Positions 3,142 to 9,471 of a stretch of DNA of 64,000 nt are shown piece after piece. The stretch comes from Pirellulales bacterium (GTDB taxonomy: Bacteria > Planctomycetota > Planctomycetia > Pirellulales > JACPPG01): NCBI GenBank assembly GCA_035546535.1, contig DASZWQ010000111.1, forward strand, positions 16,357 to 80,356, given 5' to 3'. The notes beneath the pieces are model-generated. The model was not told where the DNA came from and made no database searches. It saw only the letters and a program-made list of their open reading frames with translations. Within the stretch, counting starts at the first letter, position 1; each line of letters opens with the position of its first letter. The translations under genes and the position numbers were made by a program.

Positions 3142-3327
3142 TCAGCCAAGGCCTCCTTCGCAGCAGGTTTCGCAAATCGTGTGGCAGCGCGAACAAATGA
3201 GCTTGCCGCGCTGCTCGACCAGATGCCCGCCACAGACCGGGCATGCCGGGCGCGAGGCCCGCGGCTGCGGATCACGGTCGCCCCTTTTTTCAGGCTTGGA
3301 TCGACTGTCGCTAGGCTGGCTGCTCAT
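3142..3327 (-). CDS. Small zinc-ribbon protein (61 aa), hypothetical
   Basis: Internal ATG at 3327 of ORF 3142..3720. Sequence is MSSQPSDSRSKPEKRGDRDPQPRASRPACPVCGGHLVEQRGKLICSRCHTICETCCEGGLG with paired CxxC ... CxxC. GC3-rich codons. Same strand as, and upstream of, the methyltransferase gene. Confidence 0.4.
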   Translation of the reverse strand: MSSQPSDSRSKPEKRGDRDPQPRASRPACPVCGGHLVEQRGKLICSRCHTICETCCEGGLG

Positions 3328-3553
3328 CGAGCAAAACGCAAAGGGGCCTTGAGGCGATTCGGTGCTTGTTCCACGACAAGTATGCCTCACGCCCGGCGAT
3401 TCGGCTATGGTCGGCGTTTTCGACCGCCGAGCGACTTTCATACCGTGGCGAGCGTTTGCTGTCGCCGCGCCAAATGGCGCAGTAGAATCGCGATCCGCAA
3501 GACCATGACGCCGTATCACCATAAGCGAATTCGCACGCCGGGAGAGAAAACTG

Positions 3554-4243
3554 ATGTTTTTGCCGCGAACGATTGGAGCTTTTTTGTTGTTGTGTGCTTT
3601 GGCCGGGTCCGCAGTTGCGGCGGATAACGTGCTTTCGGACCAGGAAAAGGCCGACGGCTGGCGTCTGCTGTTCGACGGCCGCACGCCTTGGAAAACCAGC
3701 ACGCTCGCGGCCAGCAACACGCCCGTTCAGGAAGGTGCGCTCAATCCGCACGGCAGCGGCGGCTACATGGTGATCCACGATCAGCCGTGGGAGAATTTTC
3801 GGCTGGCGCTCGATTTCAAACTGAGCAAAGGGTGCAACAGCGGAATCTTCATCCGCACGTTTCCGCTGGAACCGCGACCAGGAAAAGATGTTGGTTACAA
3901 CGGCCTGGAAGTGGCGCTCGACGACACGCCGACGGCCGGCTACACCGATACCGGTGCCATTTACGATCTCTCGAAGCCCACCCGCAATGCCATGCGGCCG
4001 ATCGGCGAGTGGAATCACATCGAAATCACCTGCGATAAGAGCGTGATCGACGTCGTGCTGAACGGCGAGCACGTCAATCATCTGGATCTCGAGCGGTTCG
4101 CGAAGCCCAACCTGCGACCCGACGGGACGCCGCACAAGTTCGACGTCGCCTACAAGGACCATCCGCGGCGCGGCTACATCGGCCTGCAAGACCACGGGTC
4201 GAACTGCTGGTTCAAGAACATCAAGCTGAAGGAGTTGGATTAA
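3554..4243 (+). CDS. Secreted DUF1080-family protein (3-keto-disaccharide hydrolase-like lectin fold)
   Basis: Signal peptide AFLLLCALAGSAVAA. Motifs GWRLLFDG, NFRLALDFK, NSGIFIR, IGEWNHIEI, GYIGLQDHGSNCWFKNIKLKEL. GGAGAG lies 7 nt upstream of the ATG. Confidence 0.85.
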   Translation: MFLPRTIGAFLLLCALAGSAVAADNVLSDQEKADGWRLLFDGRTPWKTSTLAASNTPVQEGALNPHGSGGYMVIHDQPWENFRLALDFKLSKGCNSGIFIRTFPLEPRPGKDVGYNGLEVALDDTPTAGYTDTGAIYDLSKPTRNAMRPIGEWNHIEITCDKSVIDVVLNGEHVNHLDLERFAKPNLRPDGTPHKFDVAYKDHPRRGYIGLQDHGSNCWFKNIKLKELD

Positions 4244-4334
4244 CCAGGACAGCAGACGTGGACGGCTGTTCACGTCGATGCTAGCATGAGGGCGATATTC
4301 TGCTGACGGTCGTGACTTGTCGAATGGATTGCCG

Positions 4335-5630
4335 ATGAAAGCTCGCGGTCAAACACTTCTTTTTCCTGAACTTCAGTCAGAAACTTCAGCGCGAGAGGAC
4401 CGCTCTTCGACCTTTGTCGATAACATGTCGCTCCCAATTCATCGCTGGTTTCGGTACAGCGCGGGGTTTTCGGCGCGATGGGTTGAGCACACGCTTCGCG
4501 AGACCGGCGAGGCCCGCGATTTGACCGTATTCGACCCGTTTGCCGGCTCGGCGACGACTCTACTTGCGGCGGAATCCGTCGGGGCACGGAGTTGGGGGAT
4601 CGATTCTCATCCATTTGTATCGCGCATAGCGCGGGCGAAACTCCTATGGCGTTCCGACGTGGATGCGTATCTGCGCAAGATTCAAGAGATCCGGCAACAT
4701 GCGGATGCCCATCCAGCGCCCGAGATCCAGTATCCTCCATTGATCTACAAGTGCTATGACGAGATGACACTGCGCGAATTGAGTGCGCTGCGTCGGGCGT
4801 ATGAGGCAATTCGTGATGACACGGCGGCATCGGAGCTTGCGTGGCTGACGCTCGTTGCAATTCTCCGAAGGGTATCGGCGGCTGGAACTGCCCAATGGCA
4901 ATATGTTTTGCCGAAAAAGAGGAAACGGTCGCCACAAAGTGTGCGCCGCGCGTTCTCGGATTGTTCGCAAATGATTGCCGCAGACATGTCTTTCGCGCAA
5001 TCGACGAACTCCCATTCGCCGGTTTTCGTGGAATCTGATGCCCGGACATGCGAAGGCATTCCCAATAACGTTGCGAATTACGTGATCACATCGCCCCCGT
5101 ATCCAAACAACTACGACTACGCCGATGCTGCCCGCCTGGAACTGTCGTTTCTGGGAGAAATCTCCGGCTGGGGAGATTTGCAGTCGAAGATCCGCACGCA
5201 TCTGGTACGTTCGTGCTCTCAACATGTGCCGCAGTCAGCGGTACAACTTGAAGAGGTGTTATCCGCAGACGAGCTAACACCGGTACGTGACGAGTTGACG
5301 GCTGTCTGCAACCAGCTTTCGGAGATACGTGTCACCAAAGGTGGTAAGAAGACTTACCATTTGATGATTGCCTGCTACTTTTACGATCTTGCTCGGGTTT
5401 GGTTGTCCTTGCGTAGAGTTTGCCTTGATGGTGCGACCGTTTGCTTCGTAATCGGCGATTCGGCACCCTACGGAGTCTACGTGCCGGTAATCTCCTGGTT
5501 AAGCTCACTCGCGCAAGCGGCGGGCTTCGGTGACGCCCGGTTTGAAAAGACACGAGACAGAAATGTGAAGTGGAAAAATCGCAAGCACAGAGTTCCGCTT
5601 GTCGAAGGACGTCTTTGGCTTAAGGGTTGA
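4335..5630 (+). CDS. DNA methyltransferase (amino-MTase, SPPY catalytic motif; N4-C or N6-A)
   Basis: ORF 4317 (TTG) or 4335 (ATG) to 5630. AdoMet motif I VFDPFAGSATTLLAAESVG starts at nt 4533. Catalytic motif IV TSPPYPNNYDY is at nt 5091..5102. GC is lower than in the flanks. Confidence 0.85.
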   Translation: MKARGQTLLFPELQSETSAREDRSSTFVDNMSLPIHRWFRYSAGFSARWVEHTLRETGEARDLTVFDPFAGSATTLLAAESVGARSWGIDSHPFVSRIARAKLLWRSDVDAYLRKIQEIRQHADAHPAPEIQYPPLIYKCYDEMTLRELSALRRAYEAIRDDTAASELAWLTLVAILRRVSAAGTAQWQYVLPKKRKRSPQSVRRAFSDCSQMIAADMSFAQSTNSHSPVFVESDARTCEGIPNNVANYVITSPPYPNNYDYADAARLELSFLGEISGWGDLQSKIRTHLVRSCSQHVPQSAVQLEEVLSADELTPVRDELTAVCNQLSEIRVTKGGKKTYHLMIACYFYDLARVWLSLRRVCLDGATVCFVIGDSAPYGVYVPVISWLSSLAQAAGFGDARFEKTRDRNVKWKNRKHRVPLVEGRLWLKG

Positions 5631-5632
5631 GA

Positions 5633-6514
5633 ATGGCGCGATCGCCAGCACACAAGTTTGGGCAAATCATAGGGGACGTTCTTGAACTTGCCGTCGTGCC
5701 GCTCCTCCAGAAGTTTGCATCCGAACATCAACTCTTCCTTGATCGGAAGGGACCAAGGAGCTGTCGCGACTCGATTAAATGCAGCTGGGTCGATCGCAAC
5801 GGCAACTCGCACGATCTAGATTTCGTGCTCGAGCGAGGAGGGTCTGACAAACAATTTGGTGCGCCCGTCGCATTTATCGAGGTTGCCTGGCGTCGGTATA
5901 CCAAACACTCTCGAAACAAAGCCCAGGAGATTCAAGGCGCGATTGAGCCCCTTGCAGACACGCATTTCGCGACCGCTCCGTTTAAGGGCGCTATACTCGC
6001 GGGCGACTTCACCAGTGGCGCTCTCACACAGTTGCGGTCGCTTGGATTCTCGGTTTTGTATTTCTCCTATGATTCGGTCGTCTCAGTTTTTCGTGAATTC
6101 GGCATTGATGCAGCCTTCGACGAGAGCACCGCTGACAGCGCGTTTCGAAGCAAGGTACGCGCCTATGCTTCACTGAAACCGCAGGAAAAATCGCGCCTCC
6201 CAGTACGGTTGCTCGCTGCGCACGACAACGACGTGTCGGCATTCATGAATGCTTTGGAAGCATCCGTGCTTCGCCAGATCGAGTGCGTCGTCGTGTTGCT
6301 GCTTTATGGAACAGCGCGCGAATTGCAGACGGTCGACGAGGCAATCGCCTACATTGAGACACACGCTGGCGCGGATAACGGTAACTTGAAGCGATACGAG
6401 CTTGAAGTCCGTTATAGCAACGGAGACGCGATCGTTGGAAGATTCAAAAAGCGCGAAGACGCAATCGCGTTCCTTCTGCAGTATCAACCAGCGCGACCAC
6501 CGGGAAATAGATAG
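5633..6514 (+). CDS. Hypothetical protein; candidate cognate restriction endonuclease of the adjacent methyltransferase
   Basis: ATG at 5633 lies 2 nt after the MTase stop (TGA 5628..5630), with AAGGG upstream. No family recognised. N-terminal HDLDFVLERGG...VAFIEVAWRRYTKH is only loosely PD-(D/E)XK-like. Lowest GC in the window. I am confident it is a CDS; the function is inferred from position. Confidence 0.5.
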   Translation: MARSPAHKFGQIIGDVLELAVVPLLQKFASEHQLFLDRKGPRSCRDSIKCSWVDRNGNSHDLDFVLERGGSDKQFGAPVAFIEVAWRRYTKHSRNKAQEIQGAIEPLADTHFATAPFKGAILAGDFTSGALTQLRSLGFSVLYFSYDSVVSVFREFGIDAAFDESTADSAFRSKVRAYASLKPQEKSRLPVRLLAAHDNDVSAFMNALEASVLRQIECVVVLLLYGTARELQTVDEAIAYIETHAGADNGNLKRYELEVRYSNGDAIVGRFKKREDAIAFLLQYQPARPPGNR

Positions 6515-6525
6515 GTGCCACCTGC

Positions 6526-7302
6526 CTACCCGCCGAACAGATCCTTGTAGGTCGTCTTCGCGGCCTGAATGCCCATTCGCAGGGCGGAAACGTCGGCGCC
6601 CAGGCTGAGCATGCGGCACCCTTTCTCGTAGCAGCAGTGCGTGTATTCGGGATTCGGAGCGACGGTGCCCCAGTGCTTGCCGTGCTTGCGGCAAGCGGCA
6701 GCGACGCGATCGAGCCCTTCGAGTAATTTCGGGTGCGAGAATTGTCCGAGCACTCCCATCGCTTGCGATAGATCGCTGGGACCAACGAACAACAGGTCGA
6801 CGGCGTCGTTCGCGGCGATGGCGTCGACATCGTTCAGGGCGCCGAGCGTTTCGATCTGAATCGCCACGAACTGTTCGCAGTTGGCATCCTTCGCGAATTG
6901 TTCTTGTGACTTGTGCGTGTAGTGGGCGTCACGGCCCGAGGTGTTCAGACCGCGCAAACCGCGCGGAGCGAACTTAGCCCACTTGACGAACTCCTCGGCG
7001 TGCGCCGCGGACTTGATTTGCGCGGCCATCACGCCGCCGGCACCCGCTTCCAGGTTTTGCGTCACCAGGGCGTAATCCGTTGGCGCCATGCGCACGAAAC
7101 AATCGAAGTTGTTGGCCCGGGCACAGGCCGCGGCGAGTTGCACTTCCTGATACGACAGCCCGCAATGTTCCTGATCGAGCCAGAAGCCGTGAAAGCCGCC
7201 GGCCAGGCCGAACATGTCGATCACGACCGGATGGGTCAGCCGCCCCAGGGCAAAAACGCGGACCAGCTCGCCCTTGGCCAATAGCTCTCGAAAGCGACTC
7301 AT
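6526..7302 (-). CDS. HpcH/HpaI aldolase / citrate-lyase beta family protein
   Basis: ORF 6526..7617; ATG at 7302 (MSRFRELLAKGELV). Motifs FGLAGGFHGFWLDQEH, VRMAP, IQIETLGALNDVDAIAA, DLLFVGPSDLS are typical of 2-keto-3-deoxy-acid aldolases of this family. Confidence 0.85.
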   Translation of the reverse strand: MSRFRELLAKGELVRVFALGRLTHPVVIDMFGLAGGFHGFWLDQEHCGLSYQEVQLAAACARANNFDCFVRMAPTDYALVTQNLEAGAGGVMAAQIKSAAHAEEFVKWAKFAPRGLRGLNTSGRDAHYTHKSQEQFAKDANCEQFVAIQIETLGALNDVDAIAANDAVDLLFVGPSDLSQAMGVLGQFSHPKLLEGLDRVAAACRKHGKHWGTVAPNPEYTHCCYEKGCRMLSLGADVSALRMGIQAAKTTYKDLFGG

Positions 7303-8279: not shown

Positions 8280-8855
8280 ATGATCGTTCTGACCGAAACC
8301 AGTCGAGAGAAAGTACTGCTGGCAGCCCAGGTAAGGGCCGCGCAACGCGGCAACCGCGAGGCGTTCGGCCAACTGGTCGAACGGTTCCAGCGGGCCGTGT
8401 ACGGCATCGCGCTGCGGCGGCTGCGCAATCACGCCGAGGCTCAGGAGCTGACCCAAGAGGTCTTCGTCCAGGCCATGCGGAAGATCGCGCAACTGCGCGA
8501 GCCGGAATGCTTCGGCGGCTGGCTGCGGTCGATCACCACGCGGATGGCCATCAACCGGGCCCTGCGCGGCGGACCGGTCGTACCCACCGAGCGCGAAACG
8601 CTCGAAGCAACCTGCGTCGAGCGGCGCACGCCGCTGGCCGTGGCGCTCGAGCGCGAGCAGGCCAGCCAAGTGCGGGCCGGCTTGGGCCGGCTGCGCCGGT
8701 TGGACCGTGAAACGCTCGAGGCGTTTTACGTCCGCGGCCAGTCGCTGGTCGAGATGAGCGACGAGTTCGGCTCGCCGATCGGCACGATCAAGCGGCGCCT
8801 GCACGTAGCCCGCAAACGGTTGGCCCGCGAGCTCGAAGAAATGGCGCCCGCTTGA
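8280..8855 (+). CDS. ECF-type RNA polymerase sigma factor (sigma-70 family, group 4)
   Basis: Region 2 is FGQLVERFQRAVYGIALRRLRNHAEAQELTQEVFVQA...FGGWLRSITTRMAINR. Region 4 HTH is QSLVEMSDEFGSPIGTIKRRLHVARKRLAREL. GGAGAG precedes the ATG. No adjacent anti-sigma gene. Confidence 0.9.
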   Translation: MIVLTETSREKVLLAAQVRAAQRGNREAFGQLVERFQRAVYGIALRRLRNHAEAQELTQEVFVQAMRKIAQLREPECFGGWLRSITTRMAINRALRGGPVVPTERETLEATCVERRTPLAVALEREQASQVRAGLGRLRRLDRETLEAFYVRGQSLVEMSDEFGSPIGTIKRRLHVARKRLARELEEMAPA

Positions 8856-8917
8856 ATGGTTCGGCCGCGACGCGCCGCTGAATGCGGTCAGTAAATGCGC
8901 AGTCCCCCTGCGAAGAA

Positions 8918-8964
8918 GCCCGGACCGGCTGGCAAGAACGCCATACGGTCCGGGCTATTTTTTT
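8918..8964 (+). terminator. Rho-independent terminator of the ECF sigma gene
   Basis: Perfect 10-bp stem gcccggaccg (8918..8927) / cggtccgggc (8946..8955), followed by tattttttt. It overlaps the stop codon of the convergent DUF423 gene. Confidence 0.65.
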
Positions 8965-9320
8965 GCAAATGCCGCCGTGGCCAAAACCAGCCAGCCCGCG
9001 ATGAAGCTCAAGCCGCCGATCGGTACGATCGCGCCGAAGATCTTTGGGCCGCCCAGGGCGAGTGGATAAAGCAGGCCCGAGAAAACGACGATGCCGACGG
9101 TAAAGCACAGGCCTGCCACATTCAGCGAAGGGGCTGGCATTTGCAGTCCGACAAGTCCCACCAGTACCAGAGCCAGCGCGTGGTACATCTGATAGCGTAC
9201 GGCGATTTCGTACGTCTCGGACTTGCCCGTCTCTTCTAGACGTTCTTTCAAGGCGTGAGCGCCGAAAGCGCCGGTGCCGACGGCCAAAGCGCCGAAGACG
9301 GCGCCGACAATAATCCACAT
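8955..9320 (-). CDS. DUF423 (YgdD/TMEM256-like) small membrane protein
   Basis: ORF 8955..9395; ATG at 9320 (MWIIVGAVFGALAVGTGAFGAHALK). Four hydrophobic helices. GAFGAH and YQMYHALAL are characteristic of DUF423. Confidence 0.8.
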   Translation of the reverse strand: MWIIVGAVFGALAVGTGAFGAHALKERLEETGKSETYEIAVRYQMYHALALVLVGLVGLQMPAPSLNVAGLCFTVGIVVFSGLLYPLALGGPKIFGAIVPIGGLSFIAGWLVLATAAFAKK

Positions 9321-9471
9321 TCTGGGAGACACAAGCGAATCCTCCGCGAGGCGGCTGGTGGTGGGTGCCGCTATTGTAGCGAGGCATCGCCACACCGGGA
9401 GGATGGCAGCCGGCCCGATAAGGGCCGCAGATTACGGCCAGTTAACACAGCAAGCGTTGCGTCACCGCCGA

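Follow-up and report, generated by a model that had tools for sequence, protein, structure and literature searches.

A bare Type II restriction-modification cassette of probable NcoI/PamI kind between two convergent genes of a Pirellulales bacterium

A low-GC two-gene islet

The window analyzed here is a 64-kb stretch (64,000 nt) of the genome of a Pirellulales bacterium (assembly GCA_035546535.1, contig DASZWQ010000111.1, positions 16,357 to 80,356 of the forward strand), and its subject is an islet at window positions 4244-6525, in which two genes, both on the plus strand and 2 nt apart, lie between a DUF1080 gene (3-keto-disaccharide hydrolase family) and a convergent HpcH/HpaI-aldolase gene. 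An earlier reading of the DNA alone, called here the sequence-only reading, had described the pair as a lower-GC module resembling a restriction-modification (R-M) system with an unclassifiable nuclease candidate. The features of the islet, comprising a methyltransferase (MTase) gene, a restriction endonuclease (REase) gene and the junctions around them, are as follows, together with the evidence on which each assignment is based.

4244-4334, plus strand: left junction and 5′ untranslated region, 91 nt from the DUF1080 stop codon to the MTase ATG; the promoter is presumed to lie here.
4335-5630, plus strand: MTase, a Type II DNA amino-methyltransferase of 431 aa (Pfam, PADLOC, motifs I and IV).
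5622-5635, plus strand: gene junction, with a Shine-Dalgarno-like AAGGG (5622-5626), the MTase stop codon TGA (5628-5630) and the REase ATG (5633-5635).
5633-6514, plus strand: REase, a predicted Type IIP restriction endonuclease of the NcoI/PamI family, 293 aa (PADLOC, tblastn, alignment, AlphaFold2 (AF2) model).
6515-6525, no strand: right junction, 11 nt from the REase stop codon TAG (6512-6514) to the convergent stop codon of the aldolase gene (6526-6528, minus strand).

The composition of the islet departs clearly from that of its surroundings. Its GC content is 0.548, compared with 0.617 across the window, which is close to the lowest value for any 2282-nt segment (minimum 0.545 at 4201; 0.16% of segments equally low; standard deviation 0.017), and the GC content at third codon positions (GC3) reaches 0.58 in the MTase gene and 0.59 in the REase gene, compared with 0.65-0.84 in the remaining genuine genes of the window and a median of 0.74 over 42 selected open reading frames (ORFs). 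The lower-GC islet of the sequence-only reading is therefore borne out by sliding-window GC and GC3 analysis, and the junction distances that it gave, 2 nt and 11 nt, are exact. The contrast with the flanks that it had taken from 100-nt samples holds in direction but not in size, as the DUF1080 gene has a GC content of 59.3% over its full length (GC3 0.77), not 66%. The only other low-GC3 ORFs in the window are spurious antisense ones, such as a 320-aa ORF at 3311-4273 (minus strand) over the DUF1080 gene and a 201-aa ORF at 8788-9393 (minus strand) over a DUF423-like gene; because of their GC3 values (0.61 and 0.51, respectively) we consider both to be high-GC artefacts and not genes.

The first gene encodes an SPPY amino-methyltransferase

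The product of the first gene carries motif I (DPFAGSATT, residues 67-75) and motif IV (SPPY, residues 253-256), with motif I first and ~185 residues between them. It matches the Pfam family N6_N4_Mtase with 34.4 bits (cut-off 26.7), with only the motif-I part of the model covered, and the PADLOC MTase_II model PDLC03306 with an E value of 2.3e-128 over profile positions 12-422 of 422. Together, SPPY, the DPFAG string (residues 67-71) and the Pfam and PADLOC matches agree with the sequence-only reading, which had named the first gene an SPPY amino-methyltransferase. An identical 431-aa protein is recorded from a Pirellulales metagenome-assembled genome (MAG; locus tag VHD36_13775), and because that protein is called at ATG 4335 we place the start of the gene there; the upstream TTG at 4317 is disfavored on the same ground. 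Homologs of the MTase are numerous (>5000 clusters), and comparison with the sequences in the PDB gave weak matches to N4-cytosine MTases, in motif I only. A serine in motif IV (S-P-P-Y/F) is a hallmark of N4-cytosine enzymes and, judged from the sequence, the product of the MTase is probably N4-methylcytosine.

Assignment of the second gene to a known restriction-enzyme family

By sequence comparison, the product of the second gene falls into an established restriction-enzyme family, one of whose representatives has been characterized. The protein matches the REBASE-derived PADLOC REase_II model PDLC03525 with an E value of 3.7e-68 over profile positions 1-285 of 288, and a second PADLOC model, PDLC03541, with an E value of 1.3e-29. 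A tblastn search of plasmids matched it to an ORF of Paracoccus aminophilus plasmid pAMI7 (29.7% identity over 266 aa, E 1.8e-30), which lies directly downstream of a C5-cytosine MTase gene. As this ORF matches PDLC03541 with 734 bits over 308 of 308 positions, that model effectively represents the pAMI7 enzyme. The R-M module of pAMI7 is PamI, a Type II system to which a passage in PMC3925955, citing Dziewit 2011, attributes NcoI specificity, and the pAMI7 ORF is taken to be R.PamI; the site that NcoI recognizes is CCATGG. The window REase and its homolog from Erwinia aphidicola both score best on PDLC03525, the sister model of PDLC03541; its score on that model (228 bits, 288 positions) leads to an estimated identity of ~40% between the window REase and the PDLC03525 seed. 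The pAMI7 ORF itself aligns to PDLC03525 only at positions 4-170, and the two subfamilies share little sequence over the C-terminal ~120 residues.

The two-gene R-M module that had been proposed from the sequence is thus upheld by the PADLOC models and the pAMI7 homology. The view of its effector as unclassifiable and uncharacterized is not, since the protein matches a PADLOC Type II REase model over its full length and is a homolog of PamI. At 90% identity the family falls into >4000 clusters, and at 50% into 579. Its members come from Planctomycetota, Verrucomicrobiota, Acidobacteriota and other groups, and the branch to which the window REase belongs is common in soil and groundwater representatives of the three named phyla, yet the public labels are nearly always 'hypothetical protein' or even 'DNA methylase'. 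Scans of the REase against Pfam and NCBIfam gave no match, because these collections hold no models for the family and not because the protein is novel; a tblastn search of a phage collection gave no match. Other identities for the REase were considered and rejected: a regulator, controller protein (C-protein) or metabolic enzyme on account of the homology to a characterized REase, an HNH, GIY-YIG or PLD nuclease as no such motifs or fold matches were found, and a Type IIG/IIS fusion as methyltransferase and nuclease are encoded separately and no MTase domain is present in the REase.

Predicted fold and putative active site of the REase

An alignment of 30 diverse members of the REase family, the PamI ORF included, contains nine invariant residues (H7, E18, D54, D63, E67, E83, R87, H92 and T127), all of which are present in the full-length window REase. 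The AF2 model of the protein is confident (predicted local distance difference test score 89.7, predicted template-modeling score 0.84), and its secondary-structure elements follow the order helix, four strands, helix, strand. E18 lies on a long N-terminal helix, followed by a beta-meander in which D63 heads one strand and E83-V-A85 occupies the long strand that follows; next comes a helix with K91 and H92, which leads to a strand-helix-strand unit. In the model, the N-terminal ~165 residues make up a PD-(D/E)XK-like core, to which a separate and more variable alpha/beta C-terminal domain of ~125 residues is added. The third motif of the core, E83-V-A85, is lysine-free, with R87, K91 and H92 just downstream. 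The best matches in a Foldseek search of the PDB were AF1548, the nuclease domains of Cdn1, Can2 and Card1, MspJI, BstEII, BsoBI, BspD6I, NotI and SgrAI, and the modeled fold most resembles that of a PD-(D/E)XK nuclease. The sequence-only reading had seen a hint of this fold in the segments HDLDFVLE and IEVAWRRYTKH; the choice of segments was a good one, as they hold the invariant D63, E67, E83, R87 and H92, and the top Foldseek matches, although weak, are PD-(D/E)XK enzymes. Matches of the REase to plant cyclic nucleotide-gated (CNG) channels among PDB sequences arose through the string 'AWRRY' and were dismissed as chance.

NcoI was listed under 'unknown superfamily' in 2008 (PMC2441816), whereas an independent prediction (PMC3045609) placed it in PD-(D/E)XK, its motif-III residue being 'migrated'. 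The arrangement D63 … E83-x-A85 with conserved basic residues downstream, read from the sequence and alignment of the window REase, fits this published NcoI prediction, with an E-x-A motif III and the lysine elsewhere.

Comparison with the closest known systems

PamI resembles the window cassette in the order of its genes (MTase then REase, on one strand) and in its REase, which is homologous over ~90% of its length and carries the same nine invariant residues. It differs in its partner enzyme, a C5-cytosine MTase by the PADLOC m5C models in place of the SPPY amino-MTase, in the size of the REase (a 308-aa ORF with a divergent C-terminal part, compared with 293 aa) and in being plasmid-borne, whereas the window cassette is chromosomal. 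The likeness to NcoI shows in the profile, the window REase fitting best the 288-position REBASE-derived model, as well as in the non-canonical motif III and in the pairing with an SPPY amino-MTase; the host of NcoI is an actinomycete and that of the window cassette a planctomycete.

The cassette on plasmids of Erwinia aphidicola (e.g. NZ_CP142283.1) is built in the same way, with a 434-aa MTase (44% identity), a 2-nt gap and a 292-aa REase (39.5% identity), and both pairs of proteins score best on the same PADLOC models; its REase, like that of the window, is annotated only as 'hypothetical protein'. Unlike the window cassette, it is plasmid-borne, with a GC content of 38%, and an extra, truncated MTase gene of 158 aa (L002:1093-1569) stands just upstream of the full-length MTase gene. 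Over its first ~98 aligned residues, this 158-aa protein shares 49% identity with the motif-I region at the N-terminus of the window MTase. Within one plasmid record, the Erwinia aphidicola cassette can be found at as many as four positions.

The same pair at other loci

The MTase-then-REase pair is conserved in all five of the other loci examined (four metagenomic contigs and one Erwinia plasmid), with junctions of -8 to +2 nt. Its neighbors elsewhere are unrelated housekeeping genes: genes for PS decarboxylase and enolase, for histidine biosynthesis and nitrile hydratase, and uvrC and isocitrate dehydrogenase genes; the Erwinia plasmids that carry homologous cassettes are 5.9-21 kb in size. 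At all four loci where it was measured, the GC content of the cassette is 6-14 points under that of its flanks, and that of the window cassette is 7 points lower.

Further arrangements were observed at these loci. At one (L035:3704-5930), an intact 309-aa REase homolog follows a truncated 243-aa MTase call and a gap of ~570 nt, which points to a frameshift or a fault in the assembly, or else to a cassette in decay whose nuclease has outlived its methylase. In a Binataceae MAG, a conserved 108-aa ORF without a Pfam match precedes the cassette (L036:2730-3056 and L037:765-1091) and is possibly a controller protein, and a 100-aa fragment with a Type_ISP_C match follows it (L036:5387-5689). The window cassette has neither the 108-aa ORF nor the Type_ISP_C fragment, and no C-protein gene.

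Insertion site and origin of the cassette

Relatives of the aldolase gene were scanned in one genome per species, giving 30 loci that were inspected to 10 kb; R-M genes were found within 10 kb of the aldolase in none of the 30. The closest relative that is syntenic on both sides, and the only such relative, is a groundwater Planctomycetia MAG (locus L004), in which the order sigma factor, aldolase, DUF1080, ICMT, HD protein is kept, with amino acid identities of 85% for the sigma factor, 84% for the aldolase, 73% for DUF1080, 74% for ICMT and 70% for the HD protein. There, the stop codons of the aldolase and DUF1080 genes are ~130 bp apart, and no R-M genes are present. The 3′ end of the DUF1080 gene aligns up to its stop codon, and the L004 spacer has no similarity to window positions 4244-4334. 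The aldolase ends in …YKDLFGG* in the window and in …YKKLFE* in L004, and this difference in the last residues places the insertion boundary at or adjoining the aldolase stop codon.

The cassette is most probably a horizontally acquired islet, marked by its deviant composition and by its absence from the syntenic site in the relative, and the horizontal acquisition proposed by the sequence-only reading is supported by the same two observations. The simplest reading of the two loci is that a bare R-M cassette of ~2.2 kb was inserted into, or replaced, the aldolase/DUF1080 spacer in the lineage of the window. The spacer of the relative (L004:2970-3100) holds repeated elements of the GTGCGCAC / GCACCCTAC type, which may represent a small repetitive extragenic palindromic (REP)-like or hairpin element at the site that the cassette occupies in the window.

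Flanking direct or inverted repeats at the islet borders were searched for and none was convincing, with 12-22-mers at chance level; nor were there terminators at the borders beyond chance, the region containing three terminator-like sites compared with 3.2 expected. A terminator-like hairpin with a T-run is located at 6452-6469 on the minus (aldolase) strand, within the 3′-terminal part of the REase gene and ~57 nt past the aldolase stop codon.

Proposed function and alternative explanations

Taking these results together, we read positions 4335-6514 as an intact two-gene Type IIP R-M system of NcoI/PamI kind, gained horizontally between the convergent DUF1080 and HpcH/HpaI-aldolase genes, and give this reading a probability of roughly 0.85. 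In such a system, the SPPY MTase would methylate cytosine at N4 on both strands of a short palindrome, most likely CCATGG, and would thereby protect the host DNA, while the REase, presumably as a homodimer, would cut unmethylated copies of the same palindrome in incoming DNA using a Mg2+-dependent site of PD-(D/E)XK type. D63 and E83 would form the catalytic site, with the motif-III lysine replaced by A85 and its role presumably supplied by the nearby R87, K91 or H92. The order of the genes, methylase before nuclease, the 2-nt junction and the AAGGG upstream of it favor co-transcription and probable translational coupling, so that the methylase would accompany the nuclease and no nuclease would be made without it. 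For the recognition site, CCATGG appears the better candidate, with moderate confidence, from the sequence relationships within the family.

Several points weigh against this interpretation. The Foldseek scores are weak (E 4e-4 to 0.5, template-modeling scores 0.27-0.39), and PDB sequence and family-profile searches with the REase returned no solved homolog. PDLC03525 is presumably NcoI itself, an assumption based on the 288-aa length of R.NcoI and on PamI having been published as an isoschizomer of NcoI. The identity of only ~30% to R.PamI and the divergent C-terminus mean that the specificity may differ. CCATGG occurs 19 times in the 64-kb window compared with about 21-23 expected (23.4 by a maximal-order Markov model) and, as it is not depleted, the host sequence gives no pointer to that site. 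Finally, in keeping with the sequence-only reading, which had noted neither mobility genes nor flanking repeats, the ORF list and a Pfam scan revealed no integrase or transposase ORF within ~7 kb on either side of the islet, and thus nothing that would explain the entry of the cassette; to be without mobility genes or repeats is, however, the usual state of bare R-M cassettes.

Several palindromic hexamers do fall well below maximal-order Markov expectation in the window (1-64000), namely GTGCAC (2 observed, 10.9 expected), CAGCTG (9 and 22.2) and AAGCTT (6 and 17.2), and could reflect other, older R-M systems of the lineage; CATATG (0 and 1.1) is uninformative.

The likeliest alternative concerns the target and not the nature of the system: a Type II R-M system of the NcoI/PamI fold could recognize a sequence other than CCATGG and so represent a new specificity. 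The sequence distances to the PamI ORF (30% identity) and to the PDLC03525 seed (~40%, estimated), the divergence of the C-terminal domain, such that the PamI ORF fits PDLC03525 at positions 4-170 only, and the lack of CCATGG avoidance in the window all point this way. R.PamI and NcoI, however, reportedly share their site despite having different partner MTases; in the 2011 work of Dziewit, NcoI is said to be paired with an N4-methylcytosine MTase and PamI with a C5-methylcytosine MTase, and by that account the SPPY amino-MTase of the window is the NcoI-type pairing. Missing site avoidance is also what would be expected after a recent acquisition. As the one characterized module of the family was published with NcoI specificity, as far as the passage in PMC3925955 goes, we consider a different site possible but the weaker proposal. 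The wider claim, that this branch recognizes a site other than CCATGG and, more generally, that an active site of the form D…E-x-A, with its basic residue relocated and with the invariant H7 and H92, works unlike that of any solved restriction enzyme, strikes us as rather doubtful.

The remaining explanations question either the function of the cassette or its arrival. Chromosomal R-M genes often decay, and the pair could be a silent remnant consisting of an orphan MTase and an inactive nuclease gene, with no functional defense; the truncated MTase call beside an intact REase at L035 and the outcome of a sigma-70 consensus scan of 4244-4334, which found no promoter-like site, lend this some support. 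Planctomycetota promoters, however, are outside the reach of that consensus; measured against the profiles both ORFs are complete, without frameshifts or internal stops, and every invariant REase residue is kept, all of which makes decay very improbable. It is just as improbable that the pair is ancestral at the locus and was lost in relatives, its low GC content stemming from constraints on the family and not from recent acquisition. Only L004 keeps enough synteny for the comparison, there is no integrase, transposase or repeat by which to recognize an insertion, and the cassette is low in GC in every genome examined, perhaps as a family trait; on the other hand, GC3, the position least bound by protein sequence, is 0.58-0.59 against the host median of 0.74, the same cassette occurs on plasmids and in unrelated neighborhoods of other phyla, and it is found at none of the 30 aldolase loci. 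Gain of an intact R-M system by horizontal transfer thus remains the reading that we prefer.

Significance for the family

Type II R-M cassettes of this sort are widespread, and a further chromosomal copy carries little scientific weight in itself, although the islet shows neatly how an R-M pair with nothing else attached can sit between two convergent housekeeping genes. What novelty is left lies in a possibly different specificity and in the family being one without an experimental structure, for which the AF2 model, a confident one, lends support to the published prediction that NcoI is a PD-(D/E)XK enzyme. Of wider consequence, thousands of copies of the REase family are mislabeled for want of a Pfam or NCBIfam model, and a profile based on the 30-member alignment would mend this.

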